64,000 nt of DNA from a virus (Duplodnaviria > Heunggongvirae > Uroviricota > Caudoviricetes): positions 186,635 through 250,634 of IMG/VR virus record IMGVR_UViG_3300031133_000383, one strand, 5' to 3'. The number at the start of each line of letters is the position of its first letter. The first letter of the stretch is position 1. Shown here one piece after another: positions 16,513 through 49,533 of the stretch. The position numbers were made by a program, and so were the translations under genes. A model generated the notes under the pieces. It saw only the letters and a program-made list of their open reading frames with translations, had not been told where the DNA came from and searched no databases.

Positions 16513-18384
16513 ATGAAACTTACCGAATTTCCATACCCAACTACTGAACCAGAATTTGTCGAATTGCTGACAGATCTCAATGACTGTTATCGAAAACAGC
16601 TTTCAATGTCACCAGTGTTTGGTCTTTTTCCCATTCTTGATGAAGAATATGATGCTTTGGTTGAAGACTTCCGTTCTAAGTTTCCAGAGTCAGCATGGTT
16701 GTCGGAAATTGAAATGGAAGAAGTTGGTGAAAACTATATCATCCATTCAGCACCAATGCTTTCAACTGAGAAAGCTTATTCTGTTGATGATTTGGCTCGT
16801 TGGGCTAAGAAAGTAGAAGACGCCGCAAAAAACCTTCATGTTGAATCAGTGTTCAAAGTAACATGCAAACTTGATGGTTTTGCGGGTGATCACGAATTTG
16901 GCAAATTATCTACTCGGGGTGATGGTGTTAAAGGTAATGATATTACTCATATTTTTGCATCCGGTGTCCTTCATATTGATGGAGTCGATGGACGTGGTGA
17001 AATTGTAGTATCCAAAAGTTATTTTGAAAGCAACTTGAAAGATATCTTTGCCCATCCTCGCAACATGATTGCCAGTGTTGTTTCATCTGATGATATTAAA
17101 GCAGAAACCAAGCAAGTACTTGCTGATGGGGCCGTTCATTTTGTACCTTATTCAACTCTGCCAACCTATGTGGGAACAGCCGATGATATTTTGAAAAATC
17201 TTGAAAAAATCACTACTGATTTGCGAAACAGTGTTGACTATTTGATTGATGGCTTTGTCATTGAATCAACCGTTGCTGAAATCAAAGATTATATGGGCTA
17301 CAATAACCATCACTACAAATGGCAAATCGCTTTCAAAGAACGTGGCGAAAAAGCTCAATCTCCCGTTATTGATATCAAACTTCAAGTCGGACGGACTGGC
17401 ACTGTGACGCCTGTACTGAGCATTCAACCTGTACTCCTTTCTGGTGCATCCATCAGCAGTGTTACGGCTCATCATATGAACAATATTCGCCAAAGTAAAA
17501 TTGGTATTGGTTCTGTTATTGAGATTATTCGCAGTGGTGAAGTGATTCCTAAAATTGAAAGGGTTATTACACAAGCTGAATATGAAATGCCTACTCAATG
17601 CCCTTGCTGTTCAACTGAGTTGCAGTGGGATAGTCATTTCTTGTATTGCCCAAACTCTGCAGGCTGTTCTGAACAAATCAAGCAAACTTTGCTTCATTTC
17701 TTTTCAACTCTCGATAATAATGATGGTTTTGGTGGTAAAACAATCAGTAAATTGGTTGATAGTCAATTCGATACATTGGAAAAAATCTATGCAATGAATG
17801 AGCAAGATTTCTTGATGGCCGGTTTTGGTCCGGGTGAAAGTGTCAATTTGGTAAAAGCCCTAGAAGCAAGTCGTACTACCAAGATTGAAGATTGGAGATT
17901 TCTTGCTGCTTTTGGCATTGCCGATTTGGGTAAAGGAGATTCCAAAAAATTGCTTCAAAACTTTACGTTGGATGCTCTGCATGAAGTAACCGCTGTTAAA
18001 TTGAGCAGTATCAAAGGGTATGGTAAAATCAAAAGTCTGACCATTACAGCAGGTATTGAGAAATACAAGTCTTTGATTGAAACCCTGCGGCCTTTCTTTA
18101 ATCTAGAATTATCTTCAAAAGTTATTATTGATAATGAAAGTCCTTTTTCAGGAAAAAATGTTGTTGTAACAGGAACAATGAAAAAGTTTTCTCGCAAAGA
18201 AATTGAAGCGTTCTTTACTTCAAAGGGAGCTAAAGTACAAAGCAAAGTTAGCAAAACAACCAATTACCTAGTGTATGGCGAAAGTGCTGGTTCGAAGTTT
18301 GATGACGCACAGGCATTAAGGGAAAAAGGAAATCCCATTGAAATTTTGACAGAAGATGAGTTTGTTAATCAGTTTGAAATTTAA
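16513..18384 (+). CDS. ligA: NAD-dependent DNA ligase (compact LigA-type, 623 aa)
   Basis: EEYDALVEDFRSKFPES and HSAPMLSTEKAY (Ia/adenylation N-terminal region). KLDG adenylation motif, TRGDG..GNDIT. Cys4 zinc finger CPCCSTEL...CPNSAGC. C-terminal BRCT (GKNVVVTGTM...YLVYGESAGSK). Confidence 0.85.
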   Translation: MKLTEFPYPTTEPEFVELLTDLNDCYRKQLSMSPVFGLFPILDEEYDALVEDFRSKFPESAWLSEIEMEEVGENYIIHSAPMLSTEKAYSVDDLARWAKKVEDAAKNLHVESVFKVTCKLDGFAGDHEFGKLSTRGDGVKGNDITHIFASGVLHIDGVDGRGEIVVSKSYFESNLKDIFAHPRNMIASVVSSDDIKAETKQVLADGAVHFVPYSTLPTYVGTADDILKNLEKITTDLRNSVDYLIDGFVIESTVAEIKDYMGYNNHHYKWQIAFKERGEKAQSPVIDIKLQVGRTGTVTPVLSIQPVLLSGASISSVTAHHMNNIRQSKIGIGSVIEIIRSGEVIPKIERVITQAEYEMPTQCPCCSTELQWDSHFLYCPNSAGCSEQIKQTLLHFFSTLDNNDGFGGKTISKLVDSQFDTLEKIYAMNEQDFLMAGFGPGESVNLVKALEASRTTKIEDWRFLAAFGIADLGKGDSKKLLQNFTLDALHEVTAVKLSSIKGYGKIKSLTITAGIEKYKSLIETLRPFFNLELSSKVIIDNESPFSGKNVVVTGTMKKFSRKEIEAFFTSKGAKVQSKVSKTTNYLVYGESAGSKFDDAQALREKGNPIEILTEDEFVNQFEI

Positions 18385-18410: not shown

Positions 18411-18468
18411 CATTGCTTTAGAGAATAAATTTTGCTATAATTTCATAATATTTTGGAATTCCATAACT

Positions 18469-19332
18469 ATGGTAGATATAAAAGTAGAACATATTCAAGA
18501 GATCTTGCATAATTTAACTGAGTTATTATCAAGTGTTACCCCAATTACACATTTCAATATTGATACCAAAACACATTTCAATATCAATAACGAGAAAAAT
18601 TATAAAGGATCTTTATACAATGGCCAAGAACGTCTTTTCAATGTTACTATTGCAAATAAGATCGACATTTTTCCTTGCTTGAAAAAAGGCAATCGTTCAT
18701 TGTTTGCTAATAAAATTTCTCAACAGCTATGTACTTTATTTAATTTTGACGCTCCCGATGTTAACCATCTTATCTCTATTATCAAAAATAATATGGAGAT
18801 TTTTCAAAACAAGGGTTATTGGTGTTCAAAAAAAATGAGTCATTCTGATATAAACTATGTTGATGTATGGGAATCTATTAAATACTCTAATCCTCCCTAT
18901 GTCAAATTTAAAAGTCAGACAATATGTAGCAGCTTTTTATCTTCAACATTAAAAGTAAATAGACTACAATCTGTACAAGTTGATATAGCTTTATTAATTA
19001 TGCCAGATAAGCTTTTATCAATAAAACACTTTATAACGGCCAAGATACCTTTTGGTAATAATTGGTATAGCTGGTATTTATTCGAACCTCACCAGCCAGA
19101 TATTTTTTATTACCTCAGAGATATCAATGTGTCATTGAAGTATGAAGATATTTTAAAGGTTTCAACGAAAATATATAGACAAGACTTGGCAGAACACATG
19201 AAACAGGTTACGTACTCACGTATGGTGCCTATTATAAAAAAACTATCGGGAATGAAACAAGAAGATGCTAGAAATTTATCAAATGAAGATAAAGATAGAT
19301 TTTTAACGCTTCAGCATATGCAATCTATTTAA
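18469..19332 (+). CDS. hypothetical protein (…RFLTLQHMQSI, family-like tail)
   Basis: 287-aa ORF with TTGCTATAAT extended -10 upstream. Confidence 0.55.
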   Translation: MVDIKVEHIQEILHNLTELLSSVTPITHFNIDTKTHFNINNEKNYKGSLYNGQERLFNVTIANKIDIFPCLKKGNRSLFANKISQQLCTLFNFDAPDVNHLISIIKNNMEIFQNKGYWCSKKMSHSDINYVDVWESIKYSNPPYVKFKSQTICSSFLSSTLKVNRLQSVQVDIALLIMPDKLLSIKHFITAKIPFGNNWYSWYLFEPHQPDIFYYLRDINVSLKYEDILKVSTKIYRQDLAEHMKQVTYSRMVPIIKKLSGMKQEDARNLSNEDKDRFLTLQHMQSI

Positions 19333-19348
19333 AATTAGGAATATAATC

Positions 19349-19924
19349 ATGAAAGATAGAGAACCACAGTATTATCCTGTCACCACGCCTACACTAGAAT
19401 TGATAAAATCATGTTTTACAGATTGTGAATCTTTTAACAAATTGACTGATGAACAAATTCAACATCGTGATTGTTTACGAATTGACAAGATTGAATGTGA
19501 GCATACTGAAATTATATTTCAAAGTTTTTGGTTTTTTTGGTCAAGTAATCAGTATAACGAATATTTAAATAAGCTTTTGAATTTTCCTCATTTTCCAATT
19601 GAATCTTATGCCGAAAACATTGAACATATTTTAGGCATTGAAAAAGACAGTTTCAGTACATATGATGAATCATTCTATTTTGATAAAGATGGACAATTAA
19701 AGTTGTTAAAAAACTATCATTTTATTGATGCTTATGATGAATATTCCGACGAATCAAGTCTCTTATTTTATGAAGGAATGAATGACGATGATTGCAAAAA
19801 TATGATCAATGAATTCTATTTCGATAATTATATCTGTCATCTCAAACTACCTCCTGAGCTTTATAAACCTCTTAATCAATTAAGTTCCGATGAAATTGAA
19901 GTATTGAAAATGTATATTGCTTAG
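19349..19924 (+). CDS. C-terminal-tail family protein (…LSSDEIEVLKMYIA)
   Basis: AGGA SD. C-terminal 20 aa clearly paralogous to 19985-20551. Confidence 0.6.
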   Translation: MKDREPQYYPVTTPTLELIKSCFTDCESFNKLTDEQIQHRDCLRIDKIECEHTEIIFQSFWFFWSSNQYNEYLNKLLNFPHFPIESYAENIEHILGIEKDSFSTYDESFYFDKDGQLKLLKNYHFIDAYDEYSDESSLLFYEGMNDDDCKNMINEFYFDNYICHLKLPPELYKPLNQLSSDEIEVLKMYIA

Positions 19925-19984
19925 TAGCTATTATATTTTTTTTATGCTATAATCTAGCTTTCTAATTAAAGGATTTTTTCTATT

Positions 19985-20551
19985 ATGCTTATTACTCAAG
20001 AAATGTCACATGATATTATTTATAATTCTTTCCAAGATTTTTTTGCTGCAAATGGTTTGACTCTGAAAAGTTTTCGCTTGCAGTCTAATAATTTGGTATA
20101 TGAACAGACTTATGTAGATGGTGTGACATTGGATGAAGTTAATGCATTTAAAGTTAATCCTGCTCACCCTATGTATAAAAAATTTTTAGACCATCTTAAT
20201 TCAAATTATAATTTTGAACAGGTTCTGAAAAAAGAAATTGATGATTATGATAGCTTTTTCAATCTTGAAAATAAAGAAAAAGACTATTACAGGGAATCTT
20301 CATCTTTTATTATTGATGAAAACAGTAAAATTCGTAAAATAATTACTTTTGAGTTTATAGAACTTACCTATGGCGATGACCATATGCTGCTGGTCGAATT
20401 TGAGGGGGCACCCATGACAAACAATTATTCTAGACTTTTCAACTATTACACAGAATATTTTGTTAATAGTGATATTCCAGTTGAAATTTTTAGACCTCTC
20501 AATGAACTTTCTGCAGATGAGCGACATATATTGCGTATGATTTGTATTTAA
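19985..20551 (+). CDS. C-terminal-tail family protein (…LSADERHILRMICI)
   Basis: TGCTATAAT promoter, AAGGA SD. Confidence 0.6.
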   Translation: MLITQEMSHDIIYNSFQDFFAANGLTLKSFRLQSNNLVYEQTYVDGVTLDEVNAFKVNPAHPMYKKFLDHLNSNYNFEQVLKKEIDDYDSFFNLENKEKDYYRESSSFIIDENSKIRKIITFEFIELTYGDDHMLLVEFEGAPMTNNYSRLFNYYTEYFVNSDIPVEIFRPLNELSADERHILRMICI

Positions 20552-20664
20552 CTAGATTCATACCATTATAAGTAACCTGAACGATTTTGACGGTTTTACT
20601 ATTAAATATTTTATTGAAAAATTTTTTACTGCTGATGAAATTTGGATATACTTAGGAATTATTT

Positions 20665-21279
20665 ATGAAGCAAGCATTATCTTTATTTTTACAAGAAACT
20701 TTAAACAATTATGATTATCAATATTTTATTGAAGATAATGAAATTTATAGAATGCCATCGAATCAACATGGCAAGCCTTTAGATAATAACTATCAAATTA
20801 TAGGTGAATGTTTTGTTGATGAAACACATATCTATGATGAAGATGACATTTTTTATAAAAATACATTCCATTTTTATTCAAGTGCCAATAAAGAACATAA
20901 CACTATTATGCGTAATTCTGATAGCTCGGCGACTCGAAATTTATTTTTAGCTTTTGTTGATAATATGAAATTAATTTGCCCCTATGTTTTAGAAGAGCAA
21001 AAATATTCATTAACTTCTCAATATTTCAAATACTATAATGCATTTATTTTAAATAAAGATGACTTATACACGATAGCACTGCCTGTATTTTCTATTCAGA
21101 CCAAAGAAAAAAAGCTTCATTACGAGTTTACTGCTGATAAATTGCAGGATATCGACCAACAAGTAGATTTCATTCATAATCTATTTAAAACTCATTTTTT
21201 CAAAGATATTGTTGATAAAACTGTACCAGAGATGTCACAAGAAGAAAAAAATATAATTAGAATGTATTATTCAAATTAA
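20665..21279 (+). CDS. C-terminal-tail family protein (…MSQEEKNIIRMYYSN)
   Basis: AGGAA SD. Confidence 0.6.
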   Translation: MKQALSLFLQETLNNYDYQYFIEDNEIYRMPSNQHGKPLDNNYQIIGECFVDETHIYDEDDIFYKNTFHFYSSANKEHNTIMRNSDSSATRNLFLAFVDNMKLICPYVLEEQKYSLTSQYFKYYNAFILNKDDLYTIALPVFSIQTKEKKLHYEFTADKLQDIDQQVDFIHNLFKTHFFKDIVDKTVPEMSQEEKNIIRMYYSN

Positions 21280-21293
21280 TGTGAGGATCTTTA

Positions 21294-22163
21294 ATGTATT
21301 TTGTAAAAAAATTTAAACACATTTATTATCAAAAATTTAAAAAAATGGGATTTGATTTTAATAATCCCATCTGTCGGCAAGATAAAATAAATAATTATAT
21401 TGTTGATATATATGAATTTATCAATGAAGATGCAGAAGAGTATATTACAGTCAAAGATTTTTATACTTTTAATAATATAGATAATATGTTAATGCATAAT
21501 CATTATTTTGAAATCAATTTTGATAATGATAACACTATTGAATATAAACAAAAACGATTTTGCAGTATTCTCAAAAATTGCTTAGGTGTAGATACTGACG
21601 GTGTTGAACTCATTGTTAATTCATTTATTGATTCGCTTTGCACATTGGGCATTATCAAAAAGAATACAAACTACAAAGATTTCTCAATTACTCAAATTTT
21701 CGATGTGAATGATATAAATTTTAGTATTCATAATGAAAACACGATAGAAATTAAAAATATAGAATTCAATAAAGTTTTAGATGATATAGCCGTTTTATCA
21801 AAAGGAAATTTTAAAAATATAACACTTGAAAACTTTGCTATCAACTTCAATATTGTTTTTAAAATAAAATCAACAAACTCTCAGTGGAGTCTGGTTCCAT
21901 CTACGACATTTATTGTTCCATTATTGGATGACATCTGTTTTTTAACGCTTTTAGAAGATACTCATGGTAGCAAAAAACCTGTTATTAAAACAAATAACAA
22001 CTATTATTTAATTGAAGAAAATAAGGCCCCAATAGACCTTATTCAATCACTGGTTAACGTGAAATTTAACGAGTATTTCAAAAACCAAGAAATAGATTTA
22101 CATACACTTACCTATCGGCAACTATCTCAATTCATAGAAATAAATGAGATGTTGGACGACTGA
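21294..22163 (+). CDS. hypothetical protein (…FIEINEMLDD, family-like)
   Basis: GAGGA SD. 289 aa, Asn/Ile-rich. Confidence 0.55.
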   Translation: MYFVKKFKHIYYQKFKKMGFDFNNPICRQDKINNYIVDIYEFINEDAEEYITVKDFYTFNNIDNMLMHNHYFEINFDNDNTIEYKQKRFCSILKNCLGVDTDGVELIVNSFIDSLCTLGIIKKNTNYKDFSITQIFDVNDINFSIHNENTIEIKNIEFNKVLDDIAVLSKGNFKNITLENFAINFNIVFKIKSTNSQWSLVPSTTFIVPLLDDICFLTLLEDTHGSKKPVIKTNNNYYLIEENKAPIDLIQSLVNVKFNEYFKNQEIDLHTLTYRQLSQFIEINEMLDD

Positions 22164-22203: not shown

Positions 22204-23364
22204 TTATATTTTCTTGATTATTTTTTGATTGTTTTTATTTAATACATATTCCATCATTCCAGATTCAGCATATTTTTTACTTTCATTTTCGCCTACAACA
22301 ATAATATCAGGAATTCCTTTATTTTTCCAATTTCTTATTTTTTTTCCTAAAGATTCAGAACTTTCATCTAGCTTACATGATTTTTTATCAAATTTTGAAT
22401 GAAGTAGCTTTGCGTAGTCGGATGATTTTTCAGAAACGGGTATGATTACTGATTTTATTGGATGCAAAAAATCTGGTATATCTTTCCCAAAAGATTCCAA
22501 CAAAATACCAATCATTCTTTCTAGAGATCCAAGAACAGCATGATGCAATATAATAGGACGTTGCATTTTATTATCAGAATCAACATATTCAAGTCCAAAT
22601 CTTTCTGGTAATACATAGTCCAACTGTATAACACCCAATTGCCAAGAACGACCTAGTTTATCTTCCACCTGAAGCTCTAGTTTTGGACCATAAAAAGCCC
22701 CCTCTCCCGGCAATTCTTGAAAATCAAGGTTGTTCATGGCACAAGCTTCACGCAAGGCGGCTTCAGCCTTATCCCAAAGACTATCTTCACCAAACCTTTT
22801 TTCTGGTCTGAGAGCAATCGCATATTTTATTTTTTTGAATCCTAGTTCTTCATAGGCTTTCTTGCTCATATTGATATATTGATTAACTGAATTAATGAGA
22901 TTTTCTGGATTAACAAACACATGACTGTCATCCTGACAAAATTGTCGCTGTCTGAACAATACCTGCAAAGCTCCTGATGCTTCATTACGATACACTTCAC
23001 CAAATTCAAAAATGGGTAAAGGTAATTCTTTATAACTACGTTTTTCGGATTGATAAATTAAAATGTGATTTGGACAACTCATAGGACGCAGTGCATAATT
23101 ACTAGCTTCTGATGAATTCAAGAAAAACATGTTTTCTTTATATTTTTCCATATGGCCTGATTGTTCAAATAAATTAGCTACCACAATTGAAGGACTTTTA
23201 ACTTCAAGATAACCATTATCTTCATGATGTTTTCTAATAAAAGATTTTAGATTTTCATAAAGCTTTAATCCTTCTGGTTTCCAATAAACAACACCTGCAC
23301 TTTCACTTAACATGAAAAGATTCATTTCATTTGCCACTTGCATATATCTTTTTTCTTCATTCAT
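22204..23364 (-). CDS. thrS: threonyl-tRNA synthetase, catalytic + anticodon-binding core only (no N-terminal TGS/editing domains)
   Basis: RPMSCPNH (ThrRS motif), FRQRQFCQDDSHVF, LHHAVLGSLERMIGILLE. AGGAG SD 8 nt before ATG (MNEEKRY) at 23364. Upstream 105 nt of the ORF-finder frame lack an SD. Next upstream gene is on the other strand. Confidence 0.8.
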   Translation of the reverse strand: MNEEKRYMQVANEMNLFMLSESAGVVYWKPEGLKLYENLKSFIRKHHEDNGYLEVKSPSIVVANLFEQSGHMEKYKENMFFLNSSEASNYALRPMSCPNHILIYQSEKRSYKELPLPIFEFGEVYRNEASGALQVLFRQRQFCQDDSHVFVNPENLINSVNQYINMSKKAYEELGFKKIKYAIALRPEKRFGEDSLWDKAEAALREACAMNNLDFQELPGEGAFYGPKLELQVEDKLGRSWQLGVIQLDYVLPERFGLEYVDSDNKMQRPIILHHAVLGSLERMIGILLESFGKDIPDFLHPIKSVIIPVSEKSSDYAKLLHSKFDKKSCKLDESSESLGKKIRNWKNKGIPDIIVVGENESKKYAESGMMEYVLNKNNQKIIKKI

Positions 23365-23417
23365 TTTATTTCTCCTAGATAATTGATTATATTTTATTAA
23401 AATTAAGGCATAAAAAA

Positions 23418-23441
23418 ACCCAGCATTTAGCTGGGTTCTTG
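23418..23441 (-). terminator. hairpin cccagcatttagctggg with 7-T run on minus strand, upstream of thrS promoter
   Basis: Same hairpin family as 4392-4409/4642-4659. Confidence 0.45.
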
Positions 23442-23651
23442 GTGTGCAGGTATCAATTATTAACGACAATACCTCACCAGCCCAGCTTCGATCTGAGTTG
23501 TTGTGGTAGTTGTTGTATTCTTGACTATGTGCATTATATTTATCCTTTTTTACATTTTAATTTGAATTCTAAAATAAGTCAAGTGTTTTGAATGTATAGA
23601 GATCTCATTGATTTTAGTTTTTGATTTGTTAACCTATTAAAAGAACAGGAG

Positions 23652-28247: not shown

Positions 28248-28326
28248 CGGAGTGTAGGTTAGCCCGGCTTATACCGCCTGCTTTGGGAGCAGGATGTCGC
28301 AGGTTCGAATCCTGCCACTCCGACCA
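28248..28326 (+). tRNA. tRNA-Pro (anticodon UGG), CCA encoded
   Basis: Acceptor cggagtg/cactccg. Anticodon stem cctgc/gcagg with loop tttggga. T-arm gcagg-ttcgaat-cctgc. Long D-loop. Confidence 0.75.
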
Positions 28327-28339
28327 ATTTAATAATAAT

Positions 28340-28417
28340 TGACAGGTAGCTCAGTGGGGAGAGCGGCTCCAAATTTTCGGGAGACGGTCGGGGGTTCAAA
28401 TCCTTCCTTGTCAACCA
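28340..28417 (+). tRNA. tRNA of uncertain identity with atypical (9-nt or mispaired) anticodon loop …cuccAAAUUUUCGggag…; Lys(UUU)-like?
   Basis: Acceptor tgacagg/cttgtca (U1-A72), U8, D-arm gctc-agtgggga-gagc, T-arm ggggg-ttcaaat-ccttc, CCA. Anticodon arm has 2 extra nt. Confidence 0.5.
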
Positions 28418-28426
28418 TCTTTATAT

Positions 28427-32562: not shown

Positions 32563-33303
32563 ATGCAGGACCTAATTTATAATATGTTAACCGCCATCAA
32601 TAAGAATCAACACTCTGAGAACCCTGTATCGATCCAACCTTTTTTCTTGAACATTCATAATTTAAGCCTTTTTAAAGTCGATCCTAGATGGTCTTTTAAT
32701 GATATATATAATAAAAATCATGACATCTATATAAACCATTTTAAAAGTCATTTTCATTATGCTTTTAATGGTTCTTCTAGTGAGATTCAGAAAGATCTTT
32801 TGAATTATTTATCATTTGATAATTCAATGATTAATCAAGTTGTAGATTATTTTGTCCAGACTTTTAAAAACAGTAATAAATGTCAAGATATAGAACTGGA
32901 TAATGATTTTCACTTTAAGGAATTTCAGATACTTCAAAATCATATTTCCGAAAAAATATATGGCTTTCATGATAATGCTGATTATTATGCTCGCAGAATA
33001 AAATTTGGAACTTACCTGAATAGTCATATTATTTTTCTTCAATATCTTTTTTTTGTCGAAAATGAAAATTTGAAAGTAAAAGCAAAAATTTGCTTTCCTA
33101 TTAGTGAAAACAATTGTTTTTCTGTGTTTATTTGTGAACCAAACGATATTAAATTAGCCTGTGAAATTATATTTGGTCATTTTTTAAATGATATGAGAAA
33201 ATTTTTATATGAAAAATATCCTCTGGAATGTGCTGACATTTTTGATGTTGACGATAATACTATAAAACTTTTTCTTGATCTCGTTAAAATGGATAATATT
33301 TAA
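32563..33303 (+). CDS. C-terminal-tail family protein (…IKLFLDLVKMDNI)
   Basis: AAGGA SD. Confidence 0.6.
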   Translation: MQDLIYNMLTAINKNQHSENPVSIQPFFLNIHNLSLFKVDPRWSFNDIYNKNHDIYINHFKSHFHYAFNGSSSEIQKDLLNYLSFDNSMINQVVDYFVQTFKNSNKCQDIELDNDFHFKEFQILQNHISEKIYGFHDNADYYARRIKFGTYLNSHIIFLQYLFFVENENLKVKAKICFPISENNCFSVFICEPNDIKLACEIIFGHFLNDMRKFLYEKYPLECADIFDVDDNTIKLFLDLVKMDNI

Positions 33304-33312
33304 GGTGACCCT

Positions 33313-34008
33313 ATGTTGAATTTAGAAAGCTTTGAGCCTATAGTTAATAGGATAAGACAATCTAAAAACACTCATGGAATAGAATCACTGGTATTTGGTA
33401 ACATTTCTGTTAATTTATCGTATTTAAAATTGGAAGATAATCGTATCAACGTTAGAATTGAAAAATTCAAACTGGATTTTGTTCAGCAATTATATAAACA
33501 GTTTGGTATTGATTTAAAAGATATAAATAAAATTGTTGATCTTTATTATCAAAGATGTATGGAAGCCAATATCATTCATCAGTTAGCCTTTAAACCAATT
33601 TTTGATATTGCTTCATTTTTCACTGCCTACAATGGATTGAAAAGTCACTTTCCATTGAAAGATAGAAATGTTATCAGTTACGAAAGTCATCTTTTCAAAA
33701 AGGAATTGCTTACTAAAAAAATCCCAATGGTGTTGGTGGATTTTTATTTAGATTTTTTTTCAAATAGTCCTGTACCTTACATTTTGATTACTTTACCATT
33801 GGCAAGAGAAGAAAAATTTCAAGTTAGGCTAACTGCTTTTGGTAATATTGATGAAATTGATAGTGTTATCAAACATCATCTAAGGATTCGTATGAAATCC
33901 TTACTTAATGGAGCAACACGCAATTATATAAGTAAGCAAGAATTCAAAATAAGTGATTTTGATTCGATGTGTCGGCATATGCAATTACGTGATATGATTA
34001 ACTATTGA
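33313..34008 (+). CDS. C-terminal-tail family protein (…CRHMQLRDMINY)
   Basis: AAGGTGA SD. Confidence 0.6.
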   Translation: MLNLESFEPIVNRIRQSKNTHGIESLVFGNISVNLSYLKLEDNRINVRIEKFKLDFVQQLYKQFGIDLKDINKIVDLYYQRCMEANIIHQLAFKPIFDIASFFTAYNGLKSHFPLKDRNVISYESHLFKKELLTKKIPMVLVDFYLDFFSNSPVPYILITLPLAREEKFQVRLTAFGNIDEIDSVIKHHLRIRMKSLLNGATRNYISKQEFKISDFDSMCRHMQLRDMINY

Positions 34009-34032
34009 GATTATTAAGGAGACATAGATTAG

Positions 34033-34785
34033 ATGTATAATGTTATCAAACCAGATTTTTATGAATTTATGTCTTTTATGAATCAACATCTACCTTTGGC
34101 AAAACAAAAAGATACTCATATCTTTGGGTATACTAAATATTTTTTTGAAATTACAGATGGTTTTGAAGTAAAAGTAGATGCTTCCATTTTGAATCTCAAA
34201 TTGGATAATAATTTCGCTAAACTTGTCTACAATTATTTTAATTTTGATTTCAAAGAAGTTGTCTCCATCATAGAATCTTATCATAAACATTTTACTGATT
34301 ATGGTTTGATAGATAACAAAAATCTAAATGAAATCCTCAATAATTGTTTTTTGACAGAGGATGAACGTATATTTTTTAGTGATATTAATCTTTATTCATA
34401 CAATACACGATGTGTAACCTTTAATAATTTAATAGTTGAAGTTCAAGTAACACACGATGCTTGCAAAGAAATGAAAATAAGAACTGTTATTTATTTTCCT
34501 GTTATGGATATTTCCTATATCAGTGTGACTGTTGACAAGACTATTAGCCAACCACCTATTGTTAAAGTAAGCAAAGTATTAAAAAGTCAGTCAATCAAAA
34601 GAACTCGAAATGCTCATTCTATTATTTCTAATTATTCATCTATAGATACTTATATGGAAAATATAGCGTTTTCAAGAGCAAAAAATATTATCAATCTGCG
34701 ATTGGGAATAAATAAACGAATAATAAAAAAAGATCCATTGGTTGTTCAAGATTATTTCAAATTATGTGAAATGATCAATATTTAA
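34033..34785 (+). CDS. C-terminal-tail family protein (…YFKLCEMINI)
   Basis: AAGGAG SD. Confidence 0.6.
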   Translation: MYNVIKPDFYEFMSFMNQHLPLAKQKDTHIFGYTKYFFEITDGFEVKVDASILNLKLDNNFAKLVYNYFNFDFKEVVSIIESYHKHFTDYGLIDNKNLNEILNNCFLTEDERIFFSDINLYSYNTRCVTFNNLIVEVQVTHDACKEMKIRTVIYFPVMDISYISVTVDKTISQPPIVKVSKVLKSQSIKRTRNAHSIISNYSSIDTYMENIAFSRAKNIINLRLGINKRIIKKDPLVVQDYFKLCEMINI

Positions 34786-34843
34786 AATATTTGACTGTAT
34801 GTTTTAAACAAGGTATAATTTTTCAATTTTAGGAGTCTACATA

Positions 34844-35257
34844 ATGACATTTGATAATAGGTTATTCAACGTGAACGGAAAATCAAAAAAGCTTTTGAAG
34901 TCAGCTATCAAGCTTGCTTTCAAATTGGAAAGCCATAACGAAAACGGAGCTACGGCACAAGGCTATGTGGTTGACTCGAAAAAGGGAATTCTATTGCTTT
35001 GGCACGCTGATGGCATAAAGGGTGCCGTCAATTTTGAAAAACCAAAAGGGTATAGGGAATCTTGCGATTTTATTATAGATTGGCTAAAAACTCCAGAAGC
35101 ACACTCTATTGAGCTTAATGATTGGGAAGCGGATATTGATCACGATGGATCGAGTGATTTAGGCTGGCGAGTCTACCTTGAAGATTGGGGTCATGTAGGA
35201 AACAATCACTATGCTATTTGTGCTGTAAAACCTTGCTATATCTGGTATGGTAAATAA
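34844..35257 (+). CDS. hypothetical protein (137 aa)
   Basis: AGGAG SD. GGTATAAT -10 upstream. Confidence 0.55.
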   Translation: MTFDNRLFNVNGKSKKLLKSAIKLAFKLESHNENGATAQGYVVDSKKGILLLWHADGIKGAVNFEKPKGYRESCDFIIDWLKTPEAHSIELNDWEADIDHDGSSDLGWRVYLEDWGHVGNNHYAICAVKPCYIWYGK

Positions 35258-35258
35258 C

Positions 35259-35918
35259 ATGCCTAAAATCTATCCTGTTATACATTACAAAGATGATATT
35301 ACTACACTGGACGAAGCTTTACTGGCCAGCGAGGTAGGTGCTGACGGTATTTTTTTGATTTCACATATTGGTCATAATGAATGTTTAATTCCTTTGGCTG
35401 TTAAAATTAAGCAACTTCATGGTTTCAGAGTAGGCTTAAATTTTTTAGGCGATGATGTACTATCAACAGCTAATATTGTTAAAGAGCATGGTTTGGATAT
35501 GGTATGGGGTGATTACTGTGGTGTTTCTTCGAGTGGTTTGAATGACAAGGGAAGAAAACTTAAAGTATGGGCAGACAATAACCCAAATATTGATGTTTTT
35601 GCATCAGTTGCTTTTAAATATCAAGATATAGAAACAGATCCACCATTAGCTGCAAGGCATGCATTGATGGCAGGTTTTATTCCTACTACAAGTGGTTCTG
35701 GTACTGGTTATGCCCCCTCTATTGAAAAAATAAGTACAATGTCTGCTTGTACAGATGGTATTTTGGCGGTGGCAAGTGGTATGAATTGTGAAAATGTTCA
35801 AAAATTTAGTCCGTATCTTTCATCTATTTTGGTAGCAACCGGCGTCTCAATTGATGAGTATCATTTTGATTATGAAAAACTGTATCGTTTTATTCGATTG
35901 TCTAGGTTAAAACAATAG
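35259..35918 (+). CDS. putative TIM-barrel protein (BtpA/SgcQ-like?); alternative start 35247
   Basis: Gly-rich phosphate-binding-like segments (FIPTTSGSGTGYAP, VGADGIFLISHIG). Coupled to upstream stop. Confidence 0.4.
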   Translation: MPKIYPVIHYKDDITTLDEALLASEVGADGIFLISHIGHNECLIPLAVKIKQLHGFRVGLNFLGDDVLSTANIVKEHGLDMVWGDYCGVSSSGLNDKGRKLKVWADNNPNIDVFASVAFKYQDIETDPPLAARHALMAGFIPTTSGSGTGYAPSIEKISTMSACTDGILAVASGMNCENVQKFSPYLSSILVATGVSIDEYHFDYEKLYRFIRLSRLKQ

Positions 35919-36031: not shown

Positions 36032-36047
36032 AACAATAATGATATAT

Positions 36048-37322: not shown

Positions 37323-37330
37323 CTTAAAAA

Positions 37331-37360: not shown

Positions 37361-37385
37361 AAACGTCTATTATTCAATAAAAATT

Positions 37386-40495: not shown

Positions 40496-41062
40496 ATGCA
40501 TGATATTTCAACACTCAAAAATCCTTCATTACTCTTTGCTGGTTTACTCAATGTGTATCGAGACATTGGTTTGGCTGATTTGGATGTTGCTGATGAAGAA
40601 ATTATTCAGCAAAATATATTGGTTATACAAGAATTGGTAAAATCTCCACACAATAGTTCTATTCCTTTTATCTTGACAAACTCTACTGTTTCTTTGTTGT
40701 CAAAACAAAACAGTGTTCGTCTAACAGGAAATAATTCATCGTTATTATTTAAAATCAAAACCATCCTTTCCACTCAATCTTTCTATATGTCATTGGACAA
40801 AGATAATGAACAAAAAATAAAGTTAATAAAATTTCATAAAAATAATATTCATGATATTGCTTCATATGAATATGTGTATATTACCTTAGACGAATTTCTG
40901 GTTCTTCTGAAAGACCTATTGCTGAATGAGCTTTTCACTATTATCAACAACTCATTTAAGCAAACCAATACTATGGACTTTTTTAGTTTTGAAGATTTTA
41001 TAGCATTACCAGCCTCTACTCGACGCCAGTATATTAACTTGTATCATATGAATACTATTTGA
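40496..41062 (+). CDS. C-terminal-tail family protein (…RRQYINLYHMNTI)
   Basis: 188 aa. Confidence 0.55.
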   Translation: MHDISTLKNPSLLFAGLLNVYRDIGLADLDVADEEIIQQNILVIQELVKSPHNSSIPFILTNSTVSLLSKQNSVRLTGNNSSLLFKIKTILSTQSFYMSLDKDNEQKIKLIKFHKNNIHDIASYEYVYITLDEFLVLLKDLLLNELFTIINNSFKQTNTMDFFSFEDFIALPASTRRQYINLYHMNTI

Positions 41063-41110
41063 ATTTATCCTCAATTTATGAGATAATCGGTACAATTCAG
41101 AGGATTTATC

Positions 41111-41701
41111 ATGCAGGATTTAAAATTATTAGATTATACAATCGTAACAGATTTTCTAACAAAAGCATTTGATTTGGGTGTTGAGTTATGTGCTTTTGAA
41201 GACCATAAATTTTCAGTCAATGCAGTTATTGAACAAATTATCTTGAATGGGTTTACACAATACACAGCAAGCAATCAAAGTCGTTTTCAACGGTTAACTT
41301 ACCGTAAAGCGTATCGTAAAAAATCAAGTAGCGGTTTGCTGGCTAATACATCCGTGGTTAATCATAAATTCTTTACTCCTGAGTTTTTTGAAGGTCAGCC
41401 TCTTTTTCTACATTTATCTTGGCCAGTGCATTTACATTTTCGTAAAGATATTTATTTTGATTTAAAAAATCAGGAAATTTATGAAGATGTTAAGAACATA
41501 AGAAAAGAAGTTGTCAGTTATTTTAAAAGTGATATTGATACAATTTTAAATGAATGTTCAGAGCGTCATTATAGTGGTTTGCATATATCGTTTACTAATG
41601 CAATTGAAGATTTTTCGCTTAAACGTAAAGATATGATGAGTATGCCAATCGATGATATTAATCGCTACATGACACTGGCTGATATGATAACAACTGTTTG
41701 A
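41111..41701 (+). CDS. C-terminal-tail family protein (…INRYMTLADMITTV)
   Basis: CAGAGGA SD. Confidence 0.6.
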   Translation: MQDLKLLDYTIVTDFLTKAFDLGVELCAFEDHKFSVNAVIEQIILNGFTQYTASNQSRFQRLTYRKAYRKKSSSGLLANTSVVNHKFFTPEFFEGQPLFLHLSWPVHLHFRKDIYFDLKNQEIYEDVKNIRKEVVSYFKSDIDTILNECSERHYSGLHISFTNAIEDFSLKRKDMMSMPIDDINRYMTLADMITTV

Positions 41702-41713
41702 GGTTGGGCATTT

Positions 41714-42538
41714 ATGAATAATAAATTTTTATCCGTATTCAAGTCTTATTACTCTGCCAAACTTGAGCAATATGGTTTTTACACAAACAACATTGTTGAA
41801 AAAAATTATACATCTAATCTTGGCGAAGTCCTACTTCTTCAAATTGAAAATGTTAACTCTGACCTATTGTGTGTTGAATTTATTTCAAATCAGTATTCTA
41901 AATATAAAAATTCGTATCGTATTTTTTTTATTTTTCAAGATAGCACGCTTAGTCCTGATGATAAGAATATAAGGGTCAACCATTATTCAACCGCCATTTT
42001 TGGTTTTGACTTTGATAACATACATCAATTGCTGCTGTCTTATTTTCGGGCAGGTCTGGAAAAGAAAATTTTCGTTTGCACAGATCCTTTAATATTAAAC
42101 AATATACCCAGTTCTTTTATTGTTGATCATAGCGATTCTACATCATATTTAGCATCAAAACATAATATAATTTTAAAAGGATTAGAGTATAATCCTTTAT
42201 TAAGAGGTATTATTAAAAATAACAAACCTACTGTTAGCTTAAAGATTGTTTTCAATTTCGATAATGGCTTTGGTCAAGCAACAGTAGCAACCTTCAAATA
42301 CATTAAAAAACATAATTATAATATTATTTCAGCCAATGATATCGACAAAAAAGAAACTGCAAAAATTATTCATTTTAATAATGAATTTACACGGTTGAGT
42401 TTTTTGCAAGCAGAATGTGAAATGGTGATACAACAACAACTTGATGATTTATTAAACAATAATGTAGTTGATTTAACCATGATTTCACAAATAGATTTTG
42501 ATAATATTGTCTTAACAAAAAGAATGGCGGATTATTGA
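41714..42538 (+). CDS. C-terminal-tail family protein (…LTKRMADY)
   Basis: GAGG SD. Confidence 0.55.
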   Translation: MNNKFLSVFKSYYSAKLEQYGFYTNNIVEKNYTSNLGEVLLLQIENVNSDLLCVEFISNQYSKYKNSYRIFFIFQDSTLSPDDKNIRVNHYSTAIFGFDFDNIHQLLLSYFRAGLEKKIFVCTDPLILNNIPSSFIVDHSDSTSYLASKHNIILKGLEYNPLLRGIIKNNKPTVSLKIVFNFDNGFGQATVATFKYIKKHNYNIISANDIDKKETAKIIHFNNEFTRLSFLQAECEMVIQQQLDDLLNNNVVDLTMISQIDFDNIVLTKRMADY

Positions 42539-42540
42539 TC

Positions 42541-43287
42541 ATGACTATTATAGAATCATATCCTTTTATTAATCAGCAAATTATTTCTTTTTTTAAAGAG
42601 CAGTTTAATTTGAAAGTACACACTGAGCTAAAGGTTTCTCTCAGTACGCAGATTTTTGTATTTGACTCGTTTAATAAAAAAACAATATTTAATATCTACT
42701 GTTCTCAAACGAAATTAGGAAAATTGCTTTATACGTTTTACATATTGGATAGAGAATCAAGTATTTATTTAACGACATTCACACAATTTTATATGCTAAG
42801 TACATCAAAAGAAATGAATGCTTATTTTGACATAATAAAGCAAGTAGGTAACTCATTAGGTTTTCCTCTTGATTTATCAGTGAGATCCTTTGAAGAATTG
42901 AATTCAACAATTAAACCTAAGATTTATAATAATTCTTTAATGGTATTATGCGATCAACAAGTTGGTTATGACAAAAAAATGAAATACAATTACAATATAT
43001 ATTCCAGTTTTTCTTTTGAATTCAACACTGATCATATTGATGTTATTAGAATTCTTTACTATGATGCACCACATGGTAAGAATTTTGCACTTTGTTTACA
43101 TTCTGATGGTACACTTTTCGACAATGACTTGATTGTATTCGAAGAAAATATTCGAGGTTTTTTCCGTGAAGAAATAATTCGACGTTTAGTGAATGTATTG
43201 TATTATGATATTAAAGATTTACGTGATTTCTCGGACGCTGAGTTGGCAATTCACCTGCCTTTGATTGAAATAATTGATTTTTCATGA
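42541..43287 (+). CDS. hypothetical protein (…LPLIEIIDFS, family-like); TTG alt start 42535
   Basis: Start overlaps upstream stop region. Confidence 0.5.
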   Translation: MTIIESYPFINQQIISFFKEQFNLKVHTELKVSLSTQIFVFDSFNKKTIFNIYCSQTKLGKLLYTFYILDRESSIYLTTFTQFYMLSTSKEMNAYFDIIKQVGNSLGFPLDLSVRSFEELNSTIKPKIYNNSLMVLCDQQVGYDKKMKYNYNIYSSFSFEFNTDHIDVIRILYYDAPHGKNFALCLHSDGTLFDNDLIVFEENIRGFFREEIIRRLVNVLYYDIKDLRDFSDAELAIHLPLIEIIDFS

Positions 43288-43331
43288 TTTTTTCTATATA
43301 CTTATAAAGTTTTGTACAGGGAAAAAATAAA

Positions 43332-44057
43332 ATGAGTGAACTCACCGATATTCCAAAATTTATAGGGATTTTCTTTGACAAGTATAACAATGGCAAAATT
43401 GGTATACAATTAAAAAAAGAACACTATAATAACGTTGTTTGTGTTGAAACTAATAAAGGAAAACCTATCTTAAAACTATCCGAATATGTTACTCGTTCTC
43501 CATATCCTTGTTTTTATGTTTCTTGTCACTATGTAAAAGATCAGCATTTTATTACAAGATTAATAAGAGAATACAGTATTGAAGATAAAGAAATGTTTCT
43601 TTTTATGATTGATACCATCAAAACAGCATTAGTTAAGCTAGGTCTAGCCACTGATGTAAAGATAAATCCAAAGATATTTACAGCTAGATTAGATTTTAAC
43701 AGATACAGTAATGGATATGTCGTCAAGGATATTGAATGTTTTTCAATTATTGATAATAATTCAACAACTATTATTTATCAAAATTTTAATTTTTCTATTT
43801 TTGAAGACAAGGTTTATTTAATTCGAACATTTCATTTCAACTATTTAATGCAAGAGTATGTTTTTGATGTGTTTAGTCACTTTGTTGACCGTGAGCAATC
43901 ATTCAATACCATCAAGCAAAATATTTATAGCAACTTTCGACAAAAGATGATTGAACATATTTCTCAAATAATGAAAATACCAAAAGAAGAATTTGCAGAT
44001 TTTTCAGACGAACATTTAGCTGATTCGTATAAGCTTTGTAACATGTATAGTTATTGA
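43332..44057 (+). CDS. C-terminal-tail family protein (…LADSYKLCNMYSY)
   Basis: 241 aa. Confidence 0.6.
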   Translation: MSELTDIPKFIGIFFDKYNNGKIGIQLKKEHYNNVVCVETNKGKPILKLSEYVTRSPYPCFYVSCHYVKDQHFITRLIREYSIEDKEMFLFMIDTIKTALVKLGLATDVKINPKIFTARLDFNRYSNGYVVKDIECFSIIDNNSTTIIYQNFNFSIFEDKVYLIRTFHFNYLMQEYVFDVFSHFVDREQSFNTIKQNIYSNFRQKMIEHISQIMKIPKEEFADFSDEHLADSYKLCNMYSY

Positions 44058-44096
44058 TTTATTGTCTTTAATGCTGTATGATTAGCAAATATTTGA

Positions 44097-46200
<2,104 letters not shown>

Positions 46201-46262
46201 TATTTACAATGTTATGTGTTATCATTATTTCTTTTTATTGAAATATAAAAGGTCAATGAATT

Positions 46263-47039
46263 ATGGCAAATACACAAGAGAAAGATTTCTTAATGCTTAT
46301 CAAAGCTTTGTCTGCCCATACTGGTGAACGGTATCAGCATCACAATCAAGGATCTTCTTTGTTGATCAAAAGTAATAAAGAAGATATTTCATTTGTTAAA
46401 TTTGGTTATGACAGAGTGTTGAGAGCGTTCAATTCAATTCAATTTACCGATGCAACGCCAAACAATATAAAAGAAATATTTATTGTTCCCACCGAACTTA
46501 AAATTATTCAATCCATCGTTGACGGTTTTTTCAATCACCCACTTGTAAAAAGTGTTTTTATTAATCCTCTTATCGCATCTATCAATACTCCTATGGTTTC
46601 TTTTAATAACATAGGGATACCTGCACATAGTCGGCTAGCTCTGAAAAAGCAATTTTCATACCGTAACGCATTGAATGAGTTTACATTAGAAAAACACATT
46701 ACAGCAACTGCTGCACTAGATATTGTTTTGGAAGTGAAATTGAAATTCAATATTTCAAAAATTGGCTGTTTCGAGTTTTTATATAACCCTATTGATAAAC
46801 AAATTAAATTGATTTCAAATATTGTCTACATTGACAGTAGACCTCAATATATATATTGTGATAGACTTCCAATGAGTGAAGAATGCTTAAAATCAAAAAT
46901 GATCGATTGGTTAAATAAAATTTCCGAACCTGTATTTATACATTTATTGTATGCACATCGTTTGAATATAACAGATGTTAGTTTTAACAAACAAAACATA
47001 CAAGAAAGTTTTTTAATGTTGGAGATAGTAATTGACTGA
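46263..47039 (+). CDS. hypothetical protein (…FLMLEIVID, family-like)
   Basis: AAAAGG SD. Confidence 0.55.
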   Translation: MANTQEKDFLMLIKALSAHTGERYQHHNQGSSLLIKSNKEDISFVKFGYDRVLRAFNSIQFTDATPNNIKEIFIVPTELKIIQSIVDGFFNHPLVKSVFINPLIASINTPMVSFNNIGIPAHSRLALKKQFSYRNALNEFTLEKHITATAALDIVLEVKLKFNISKIGCFEFLYNPIDKQIKLISNIVYIDSRPQYIYCDRLPMSEECLKSKMIDWLNKISEPVFIHLLYAHRLNITDVSFNKQNIQESFLMLEIVID

Positions 47040-47868
47040 TAATACTGTGTTGAACAACTTAAAGGAATTTTTTATAGCTTATTTAAAAACTAATCATCAC
47101 CTTGATGTTGTTAAAACAGCTATTAAACATAAGGTGAATAATGGTCGTTCTGATGTGATTAAATTTATCATTAAGGATTTGACTATCAGTCCGCACAATA
47201 GATATGTATTGGTTTATGTAGATCGCTATAATAAAGGTTTTATTGATATATCGACGAACATAGATAAAATTTTTTTGATCACAATGTATAATGATTTCTT
47301 GTCACCTTATCTCTATAAGGAGATAGATGTCTTCAAAAAAACATTACAATTTATTTCAGATAAATTTATATTGTTTGATTCTATGGACTATGATATTGGC
47401 GAAGAGTATGGACATATTAAACATGCGACTTCAAAAGAATTTAGTGAGCAATATTTTAATATGTCTAGTTTATTGATTACCAAACTTCCTATCAATACAG
47501 ATGTATATCCCAAATGGAAAAATTGTTATATCACCAGTCAACTACAATTTATTTATAACAATGATAAATTAGTGGCCTTTCCTGTTATTTCACTCCACTT
47601 AGGCAATATCTATCATGCTCAGAAATTAAAAAACAATTCAATTGTCGCTGTGTCTTCTAATGAAGAAATCATATCGATTGAATTAAGCTTACGCAAGAAT
47701 TTTTCTAGTCATGTCTCAAAATTCGTTAGTATTTTTGAAAATTTGTTATACAATGATTTCTATAAAGCTCTAGGCCAATTTTTCAACATCAGTCTTGAAG
47801 ATATTAAACAAAGCACTGCCCAAGATCTAGAAGCCTATGCAACTGTATTACGTATAAAATATACATGA
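47032..47868 (+). CDS. hypothetical protein (TTG start, …ATVLRIKYT)
   Basis: GGAGA SD 9 nt upstream of TTG. No in-frame ATG for about 88 codons. Confidence 0.5.
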   Translation: MTDNTVLNNLKEFFIAYLKTNHHLDVVKTAIKHKVNNGRSDVIKFIIKDLTISPHNRYVLVYVDRYNKGFIDISTNIDKIFLITMYNDFLSPYLYKEIDVFKKTLQFISDKFILFDSMDYDIGEEYGHIKHATSKEFSEQYFNMSSLLITKLPINTDVYPKWKNCYITSQLQFIYNNDKLVAFPVISLHLGNIYHAQKLKNNSIVAVSSNEEIISIELSLRKNFSSHVSKFVSIFENLLYNDFYKALGQFFNISLEDIKQSTAQDLEAYATVLRIKYT

Positions 47869-47878
47869 GGATTTATTG

Positions 47879-48757
47879 ATGTCAGACTCTATCAAACGTT
47901 ATTTTCCATTAATAAAAATGGTTAACTCCAAAATAAATATGTATTATCCTAATAATCTTACAACTGTATTACGCAATAGTTCGTTAAATGATTTCGAAAT
48001 TATTATAAAAACTGATAGTTTTCATTCTTCAAAGACGGATTCTATCATTTTTGAGAAAAATGATAAATCTTCTCGTATCAATAGTATTTTATTAGAAAAA
48101 ATAAGATTTTACTTTAGAGAATACGATGGTTTTAATCTGCTGACAATGACAGCTTCGACCAATAGAAAATCACCTATTATAAAAGATATTTACGATGAAT
48201 TATTTTCTGGCGTTGAATTTCCATCTTCTCGTTTTATTGATATATTAGATAGGTATGAAGAAACAACTGCAAAATTTGATTATTTTTCAGGCTTTAAAAA
48301 GCGATTTATTCCACAATCAATTGATGATATGTTCGTAAAAAAGACGGATGGCAAACAAACAAAAGATTTAAAGGTTGGACAAGCTCATTATTCTCAAATG
48401 GGTAAATCAGAAAACATGCGTAAATCTAGCATGAATTCTAGTTCTTCCTACTCTCCAATTAAGGCAGATTTAAAAATTGGATTTACTGATAAAGATAATT
48501 TTATTCCAATTGTTTTATTTACATTGCCTATTCTGTCATCCAATAAATATAAGATGCCTGTTCCCATTCTTTCAAACAACTTTGAGAATTTTTTGGAGCA
48601 ATCTTTTGAAAAGTTCGAAGCAGCCTTCAAGAAGTGTATTATTAATATTATTGCCAATAAAGAAAATCTCAAACTTAAAGAAAAAAAATTACTGTTTAAT
48701 CTTTCTGATGAAGAGCTTTATATGAGATATAAAATTGTTGAAATGATCAATATATGA
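47879..48757 (+). CDS. C-terminal-tail family protein (…YMRYKIVEMINI)
   Basis: GAGGA SD. Confidence 0.6.
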   Translation: MSDSIKRYFPLIKMVNSKINMYYPNNLTTVLRNSSLNDFEIIIKTDSFHSSKTDSIIFEKNDKSSRINSILLEKIRFYFREYDGFNLLTMTASTNRKSPIIKDIYDELFSGVEFPSSRFIDILDRYEETTAKFDYFSGFKKRFIPQSIDDMFVKKTDGKQTKDLKVGQAHYSQMGKSENMRKSSMNSSSSYSPIKADLKIGFTDKDNFIPIVLFTLPILSSNKYKMPVPILSNNFENFLEQSFEKFEAAFKKCIINIIANKENLKLKEKKLLFNLSDEELYMRYKIVEMINI

Positions 48758-49533
48758 AGATTAAAGATTATTTTTTAAACACCTTTAATCACTATACTGT
48801 GCATTTTGATAGTTTGAATAATTTTTTATTTGTTCGTTTGTATGATGGTGTGAAATTTATAGCTAAATTTAAAATAAAAGGCAATTCTATCATAGGGATT
48901 TATTTACATCCAGAATATGAAAAAGACATTGATAGAGTTTTTCGTTTTACTTATGATTTAACTATCGAAAAAAAGCTTTGTATAGCTGTTAATCTTTTTC
49001 TCAACAATAAAGTTATGGCTGCTTTTTTTAAGTCTGTTGACAGACGTTTCCGGCAAATTCAAGATGCCAATATTTATGATAATTTAAGACAATATGATAT
49101 GGATACTTCAATGTACCTTGAAACGTATCCTCGATTTGAACTTCAATACAGAACATGTGGAAAAATTTATTACGCTCAATTCTTTATATTTGATTCAAAC
49201 AATTATCCACATTCTATTTTTGCTATTAGTTTTTTGTTGCCAAAATATACAGTGCATATTTTGTATTCAGTAGAATTAAATACGTTTATAAGTGTTCAAG
49301 GCTTATTTAAAGATTTACCAATTCAGTTTCATGAAAAAACCTTTGAACATATTTTCGAAAGTGCTAAACCAATTAAAGATCTCAGCACTTATATAAATGA
49401 TTATCATAGTTATGACATTATGTTTACTTTTGTCAATATGATAACAAATGATAGATCTTTAACTGAACACATGTTGCCTTCCATCGATTCATTGGATAAT
49501 GCCATTGATCTATTAAATATGATGTATATTTGA
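48754..49533 (+). CDS. C-terminal-tail family protein (…IDLLNMMYI); ATGA start/stop overlap
   Basis: 259 aa. Confidence 0.6.
   Translation: MKIKDYFLNTFNHYTVHFDSLNNFLFVRLYDGVKFIAKFKIKGNSIIGIYLHPEYEKDIDRVFRFTYDLTIEKKLCIAVNLFLNNKVMAAFFKSVDRRFRQIQDANIYDNLRQYDMDTSMYLETYPRFELQYRTCGKIYYAQFFIFDSNNYPHSIFAISFLLPKYTVHILYSVELNTFISVQGLFKDLPIQFHEKTFEHIFESAKPIKDLSTYINDYHSYDIMFTFVNMITNDRSLTEHMLPSIDSLDNAIDLLNMMYI

Follow-up and report, generated by a model that had tools for sequence, protein, structure and literature searches.

A conserved C-terminal tail on a tandem gene array, and a possible fast-diverging paralog family, in a metagenomic phage contig

Introduction

Protein families that pair a variable body with a constant C-terminus include the poxvirus ankyrin/PRANC proteins, the Legionella Dot/Icm effectors and the proteins that carry encapsulin cargo-loading peptides. 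The signals of these families are flexible and act via an SCF ligase, a type IV secretion system and the encapsulin shell, respectively; the Dot/Icm signal is Glu-rich and C-terminal, with a hydrophobic residue near position -3 or -4. Here we describe a set of phage genes with related C-terminal tails, and in particular the tandem array of such genes that begins at position 18469 of a 64,000-nucleotide stretch of DNA (positions 186,635 to 250,634 of IMG/VR virus record IMGVR_UViG_3300031133_000383), which as a whole we call the window.

The tail family shares with the PRANC, Dot/Icm and encapsulin families its diverse bodies, its 10-30 conserved C-terminal residues that run from acidic to hydrophobic, and its dozens of genes per genome. 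Unlike the signals of those families, the tail is predicted to be ordered and sits on no recognisable enzyme, and no machine comparable to those three was identified. A second precedent is found in Bacillus phage G, whose zinc-ribbon family of about 35 copies arose by lineage-specific expansion (Iyer et al. 2021, PMC7824862). Like the zinc ribbons, the tail family consists of many fast-diverging copies in one very large phage, placed largely in tandem and confined to one lineage; unlike them it has no recognisable domain, and its sole family-wide signature is a C-terminal helix.

Multigene expansions are already known from jumbo phages, whereas neither the tail family nor its terminal signature nor its predicted fold has a match in Pfam, PHROGs, PADLOC, PDB or BFVD. 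Searches of Pfam-A, PHROGs v4 and PADLOC gave no meaningful match for the four genes at 19349-22163 or for the 27 family members of the window, and no relevant account of such a C-terminal-tail family was found in the literature. Over a third of the genes in the window belong to this one unannotated family; an explanation of it would account for much of what is 'dark matter' in this phage lineage.

The Tail Array and Its Paralogs

The reading that we favour, with modest confidence, is that the genes at 18469-21279 belong to a large, lineage-specific and fast-diverging paralog family of a huge phage, in which a C-terminal module is kept as the bodies diverge. Membership was judged operationally by the heptad [LIVMF]xxMxx[IYFVLMTA] finishing exactly at the C-terminus (the last residue being position -1), by the matrix score of the tail and by homology beyond it. 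Genes are named below by their first coordinate, and all those of the array lie on the plus strand.

The array opens with 18469 (18469..19332, 287 amino acids (aa)), which has a tail at 19249-19329 that ends …FLTLQHMQSI, with the heptad LQHMQSI as its exact C-terminus. Its ortholog in the related metagenomic locus L009 has 281 aa, likewise follows a ligase gene and ends …FIQLRLMQQI. Next come 19349 (19349..19924, 191 aa), with the tail module LKLPPELYKPLNQLSSDEIEVLKMYIA at 19841-19921, and its old paralog 19985 (19985..20551, 188 aa), with the tail …IPVEIFRPLNELSADERHILRMICI at 20468-20548; the two represent clades I and II of a single orthogroup. All three of these genes end in the heptad. 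The body of 18469 has no detectable relationship to those of the other two.

The related family gene 20665 (20665..21279, 204 aa; tail …VPEMSQEEKNIIRMYYSN at 21196-21276) has its Met at -5, one extra residue relative to the heptad; its orthologs in L003, L006 and L009 retain the motif MS/TxEEKxxIRMYY. Last comes 21294 (21294..22163, 289 aa), with the marginal tail …FIEINEMLDD at 22131-22160: Met is at -4, and the final Asp breaks the heptad at its last position. The gene is an orphan, for which HHalign gave no match and whose sole match among 5.8 billion proteins was 21294 itself. It is only marginally a member of the family and has the weakest tail of the four. An initial annotation, made from the sequence, had described a four-gene plus-strand array running from 19349 to 22163 and had quoted the tails. 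The four open reading frames (ORFs) and their tails are as it gave them, and across the family the tail signal is stronger than it had claimed, but the array begins one gene earlier, at 18469-19332, and takes in 21294 only marginally.

BLASTP aligns 19349 with 19985 in register over 83 aa (residues 108-188 versus 107-185; E=4e-9), and 10 of the 21 residues of their quoted tails are identical, which upholds the proposal that these two tails can be aligned residue by residue. When 1.84 billion representatives were searched exhaustively with a profile, 25 proteins were returned at E<=1e-3, about 22 of them full-length homologues of 19349/19985 (176-207 aa) that were matched to the C-terminal end. 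An iterative profile search within the window, started from the same pair, recruited no ORF. The alignment of the group (A5, 24 sequences) contains a 19349-like clade of nine sequences and a 19985-like clade of 15, in which 19985 groups with 14 other representatives and has a top match that is 42% identical. Members of the same clade are about 30% identical, and sequences from different clades 18%. Given the two clades and the low identity between them, the duplication that separates 19349 from 19985 is old.

HHalign matched A5 to the alignment of the 20665 group (A7, five orthologs) with a probability of 87% (E=4.3e-6) over 83 columns, which take in three strands, the long helix and the tail. 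By these alignments 19349, 19985 and 20665 evidently derive from one ancestor through old tandem duplications. The clear pairwise paralogy claimed in the initial annotation thus applies to 19349 and 19985 at full length and to 20665 over its C-terminal ~83 residues, which is more than the likeness in the tail alone that had been allowed for that gene; it does not extend to the orphan 21294.

Comparison with related loci, which the initial annotation had recommended, also supports the old paralogy of 19349 and 19985. The gene order in L009 is ligase, 18469-like, clade I, clade II and 20665-like, the same as in the window, and in L003 and L006 it is ligase, clade I and 20665-like.

Conservation of the Tail

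In A5 the last ~27 residues form the most conserved stretch, with the consensus h-P-[DE]-E-L-x-K-P-h-x-x-[LM]-[ST]-x-[DE]-E-x-x-h-h-x-M-x-x-[IL]-COOH. Pairwise identity averages 41% for the tail and 22% for the body, and over segments of 25 columns the mean BLOSUM62 score is 2.27 for the tail against 1.26 for the best body segment (Mann-Whitney p=3e-5). The description of the rest of each protein as divergent agrees with this low body identity, but 19349, 19985 and about 20 homologues align at full length and have a confidently predicted common fold.

Between the window genes and their orthologs, nonsynonymous divergence (dN) is 0.39-0.60 for the tail and 0.64-1.0 for the body; the adjacent ligase has a dN of 0.24, so the array genes evolve about three times faster than their neighbour. 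The ratio of dN to synonymous divergence (dS), split by region as had been suggested, is unusable because dS is saturated (proportion of synonymous differences, pS, about 0.65-0.7 and spanning 0.5-1.0), leaving dN and amino-acid identity alone as informative; dN is the lower in the tail. Rapid diversification of the body under constraint on the tail had been proposed from the sequence. The better conservation of the tail and the fast dN agree with this, although the body is not free-running.

C-termini were counted over the 72 ORFs of at least 80 aa in the window. Met stands at -4 in 21 of them, where 1.7 are expected (p=3e-17), and Leu at -7, Glu at -5 and Ile or Tyr at -1 are also enriched. 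The heptad occupies the exact C-terminus of 18 ORFs against 0.17 expected from its internal rate (p=2e-31). We also scored tails with a position matrix for which the training set was 23 other tail-bearing ORFs and left out the tested genes; it ranked the tails of 19349, 19985, 20665 and 21294 above every one of 45 non-member C-termini, with shuffle p values of 0.035, 0.0025, 0.0054 and 0.024, in that order (Fisher's combined p=1.4e-5). Enrichment counts, matrix and shuffles agree that the tail is significantly conserved after correction for composition. The opposite outcome, which the initial annotation had named as fatal to its proposal, is contradicted by the -4 Met, heptad and matrix tests.

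The C-terminal enrichment was reproduced in four related metagenomic loci (L002, L003, L006 and L009) and was absent from a 42-kb region of the Xanthomonas phage XacN1. About 27 tail-family ORFs lie in the window, in arrays and as singletons, and a few further members lie in the flanks of the contig. They are about 190-290 aa long, with a narrow length distribution.

The shared tail might not be a protein feature at all: it could stem from a DNA or RNA element located where genes end, such as a promoter, a terminator or a site of recombination for cassette shuffling, or from convergence on a low-complexity composition. The genes are tightly packed, and because some next genes start 9-24 nt past the stop codon their signals overlap the tails. 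Codon analysis nevertheless shows that it is the second codon positions that carry the conservation of the tails. Three positions before Met, where the residue is hydrophobic and mostly Leu, 12 different codons occur, including every one of the six for Leu; all three stop codons are used by tail-bearing genes, and the sequence 3′ of these stops is not conserved. The motif is, moreover, anchored to the stop codon and not to the next start, and composition is ruled out by the shuffling controls. A DNA-level element at gene ends was rejected on the codon-position analysis, and we give almost no credence to this explanation in any of its forms. The tail motif is a protein-level constraint.

Predicted Structure and Possible Roles

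With the 24 sequences of A5, AlphaFold predicted for 19349 a compact single-domain α/β model with a predicted local distance difference test score (pLDDT) of 93.2 and a predicted template modelling score (pTM) of 0.85. For the blocks that make up the tail the pLDDT is 93-96 and 90, and the terminal helix is placed at residues 180-190. An earlier run with 6 sequences reached a pLDDT of 65, and the Foldseek search of PDB made with that model is meaningless. The 19349/19985 group thus has a confidently predicted fold for which no structural relative was found in PDB or BFVD (best BFVD E=0.11).

The last four tail residues are hydrophobic all round the helix (M-h-h-I/Y). Together with the high confidence of the model this suggests a buried C-terminus, and a buried chain end would explain why almost every member stops three residues after Met. 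The C-terminal module shared by members of the proposed paralog family opens with a short acidic turn, which reads P-E-E-L-x-K-P in the 19349 group; an S/T-x-x-E helix cap follows, and then the hydrophobic terminal helix, which ends h-x-x-M-x-x-h. The helix would act as a buried structural lock on the domain, and may also offer a constant surface toward one partner or assembly common to all paralogs. The bodies would diversify for different targets, as expected of host-interaction factors in takeover or anti-defence, and the genes would be expressed from host-type promoters.

Several observations weigh against this reading. Beyond the last 10-25 residues no similarity was detectable for 18469, 21294, the 12419 group or most other tail-bearing ORFs, and since body homology was seen only for 19349, 19985 and 20665, common ancestry of the whole family is something that we infer. 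A 28-position hidden Markov model built from 23 other tails misses the four tails at 19349-22163, whose helix cap sits four residues nearer to Met than it does in the other tails. Burial of the terminal helix was read from confidence values and hydrophobicity, not from coordinates, and AlphaFold may have docked onto the body an amphipathic tail that is free in reality. In favour of paralogy, body-to-body scores among all tail-bearing ORFs are slightly but significantly above the scores of members against non-members (p=0.001).

The hydrophobic character of the last four residues also bears on the idea that the C-terminus is a degradation tag, by which a host or phage protease that recognises non-polar C-termini would keep these proteins short-lived and time their removal during infection. 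Non-polar C-termini destabilise proteins in E. coli, and the window contains a peptidase gene, at 50554-51498. Known degrons, however, are unstructured and show little conservation upstream, whereas here about 25 residues are conserved and predicted to be ordered, prolines and helix cap included, and nothing links the peptidase, of S49 type, to the tail proteins. We regard a degradation tag as very unlikely.

A tail that is constant in position on dissimilar bodies could instead be a transferable docking or sorting peptide directed to one hub. This hub could be a sliding clamp, as for the polymerase and late-transcription proteins of T4 and RB69, the capsid interior, as for encapsulin cargo peptides or internal proteins of phages, or another assembly. 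A transferable peptide is a doubtful explanation in our view, but it accounts for several features. The distance from Met to the end is strictly fixed although the bodies of the subfamilies are dissimilar, and Met itself, not just any hydrophobic residue, is kept in 23 of 27 tails despite AT-biased mutation. The largest tail array (40496..49533) adjoins the S49-type peptidase gene, which PHROGs places with head-maturation proteases. The DNA polymerase of phage RB69 provides a further parallel: gp43 (locus L014, 15640-15732, minus strand) ends …KKASLFDMFDF, which fits the heptad as L-x-x-M-x-x-F-COOH. The C-terminal peptide of the RB69 polymerase reportedly binds the clamp, a finding attributed to Shamoo and Steitz (1999).

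The pattern L-x-x-M-x-x-aromatic/aliphatic-COOH is identical in the tail family and in the gp43 clamp-binding tail. T4-like phages, however, have such ends on a few replication and transcription proteins, whereas the heptad of the tail family is found on ~27 proteins with no assigned function and not on the polymerase-like ORF or the ligase. RB69 gp55 ends …SLDFLYEDDN. Beyond the pattern the parallel fails, since the tail is predicted to be ordered (pLDDT above 90) and no clamp gene was recognised within the window. None of the recognisable enzymes of the window bears the tail, including the ligase, the polymerase-like ORF (25011-26108), the three tRNA synthetases, the PNKP-like phosphatase and the peptidase. 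Narrow lengths, tandem placement and residual body similarity fit paralogs better than unrelated cargo. The absence of the tail from every window protein with a known domain and the high tail pLDDT argue against an appended targeting peptide of the kind seen in encapsulin cargo or secretion signals.

In a broader form, which we hold only tentatively, the tail with its capped helix would be an undescribed phage 'handle' that recruits dozens of dissimilar proteins to one partner or assembly, be it a hub resembling a clamp, the inside of the capsid or some other structure built by the phage. With such a handle the family would parallel, in phages, the effector and adaptor families that have a constant C-terminal signal, and it would show how huge phages organise large sets of host-interaction proteins.

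Mimicry of sigma-70 region 4 was also considered and rejected. In a search of PDB with the tail profile A6, region 4 of sigma-A of Thermus aquaticus (1KU3, 1KU7 and 3N97) was among the top three sequences, the 20 residues EELEKALSKLSEREAMVLKM being aligned with the profile eELkKPlskLSedEidLlrM, but E was only 0.7 and not significant. The match was lost with the broader tail profile A11, which gave unrelated proteins such as nitric oxide reductase and SmD2 instead, and Pfam Sigma70_r4 was not matched. Unlike region 4, the family proteins stop three residues after Met, where the DNA-binding helix-turn-helix would begin. We judge the likeness to sigma-70 region 4 or to a LuxR-type helix-turn-helix to be a generic helix-cap resemblance.

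Promoters and Gene Layout

The initial annotation had assigned a TGnTATAAT promoter to each of its four genes. Only one of them, 19985, has such an extended -10 motif (TGCTATAAT at 19945..19953, plus strand); a second exact match, also TGCTATAAT, lies at 18433..18441 (plus strand) upstream of 18469 and probably drives both 18469 and 19349. The start of 19349 lies 16 nt past the stop of 18469 and has an AGGA ribosome-binding core. For 20665 the only promoter candidate is a weak TTTACT-16-TATACT. This gene is probably co-transcribed with 21294, which starts 14 nt past the stop of 20665. The layout looks like three short operons: 18469 with 19349, 19985 alone, and 20665 with 21294.

There are 15 exact TGnTATAAT motifs in the window, most of them 25-45 nt upstream of start codons. 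They include sites at 1374, 8083, 16475, 18433, 19945, 51585, 60796 and 61956 on the plus strand and at 285, 4343, 14465, 26146 and 54631 on the minus strand. Since the motif precedes many gene classes, among them the ligase, the phosphatase and the polymerase-like ORF, it does not single out the tail family.

Three further tail arrays lie on the plus strand of the window. The first (384..3000) has three genes, 384-1151, 1404-2147 and 2164-3000, with tails …ILPMMFT, …IIEMQYY and …LLEMIGV; the bodies of 1404 and 2164 are alike at E=9e-6. The second (32563..35918) contains 32563-33303, 33313-34008 and 34033-34785, with tails …LVKMDNI, …LRDMINY and …LCEMINI, and possibly 35247-35918, with intergenic gaps of 9-24 nt. 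The largest, at 40496..49533, comprises ten family genes with gaps of -11 to +62 nt and a seryl-tRNA synthetase gene (44106-45389, plus strand) in between. Directly downstream of it is the S49/NfeD-like peptidase gene (50554-51498, plus strand).

Phage Context and Other Genes of the Window

The window has a GC content of about 30% and lies within a 322,998-bp metagenome contig (ena:ERZ27247402:k141_253576). Its features point to an uncultivated, very large phage that is a distant relative of the Xanthomonas jumbo phages XacN1 and Xoo-sp13. A 778-aa ORF at 4883-7219 (minus strand) matches phrog_33734, of unknown function, at E=2e-153 and shares 45% identity with XacN1 ORF396 and with a protein of Xoo-sp13. 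It is the sole strong link of the window to cultured phages; other window ORFs also match PHROGs. A DNA search of INPHARED found no close relative, scans of IMG/VR with 19349, the ligase and protein P0009 found no match, and GTDB genomes gave only generic ligases at 28-29% identity. Sigma-70-type promoters are common in the window, and Shine-Dalgarno cores precede 51% of its genes against 7% of background 15-mers.

Close relatives of the window were found on contigs of 1,539,155 bp, 773,483 bp and 604,313 bp (L003, Ga0247725_1000001; clusters of P0003, P0049 and P0057), and the 604,313-bp contig encodes proteins identical to window ORFs. The largest phage genome known to us is 735 kb (PMC7162821). 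Should each of the long contigs represent one real genome, this lineage would surpass that size; misassembly, concatemers or a cellular origin are the alternatives.

The array adjoins an NAD-dependent DNA ligase gene at 16513-18384. Three aminoacyl-tRNA synthetase genes lie inside the 64 kb: a short ThrRS-like gene (22204-23469, minus strand), the SerRS gene already mentioned inside the largest array, and a bacterial-type TyrRS gene with an S4 domain (56416-57675, plus strand). There is also a cluster of three tRNA genes, tRNA-Pro/Lys/Ser (28248-28514, plus strand). An SPFH/Band-7 protein (31574-32473, plus strand), a PNKP-type phosphatase and a MYG1-like exonuclease are also recognisable, and most other ORFs are orphans.

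Other small families are present. Four tandem paralogs at 36039-40198 (plus strand; 427, 277, 277 and 285 aa) are 48-62% identical and have no Pfam match; all end …CRKP[IV], and each stands behind a near-consensus TTGACA-N17-TATAAT promoter. The adjacent small paralogs at 58814-59077 and 59092-59349 (plus strand; 87 and 85 aa) are 36% identical (E=3e-20), with conserved Cys/His-rich C-termini …C.C.CH.KG..V.H. A 147-aa ORF at 29396-29839 (minus strand) ends in a Pro/Val/Tyr/Gln-rich repeat, …PVYAQPVYQPVYQVPAVRVYQTQRIYQSYP, and a similar C-terminus is found in L003 at 19218-19733.

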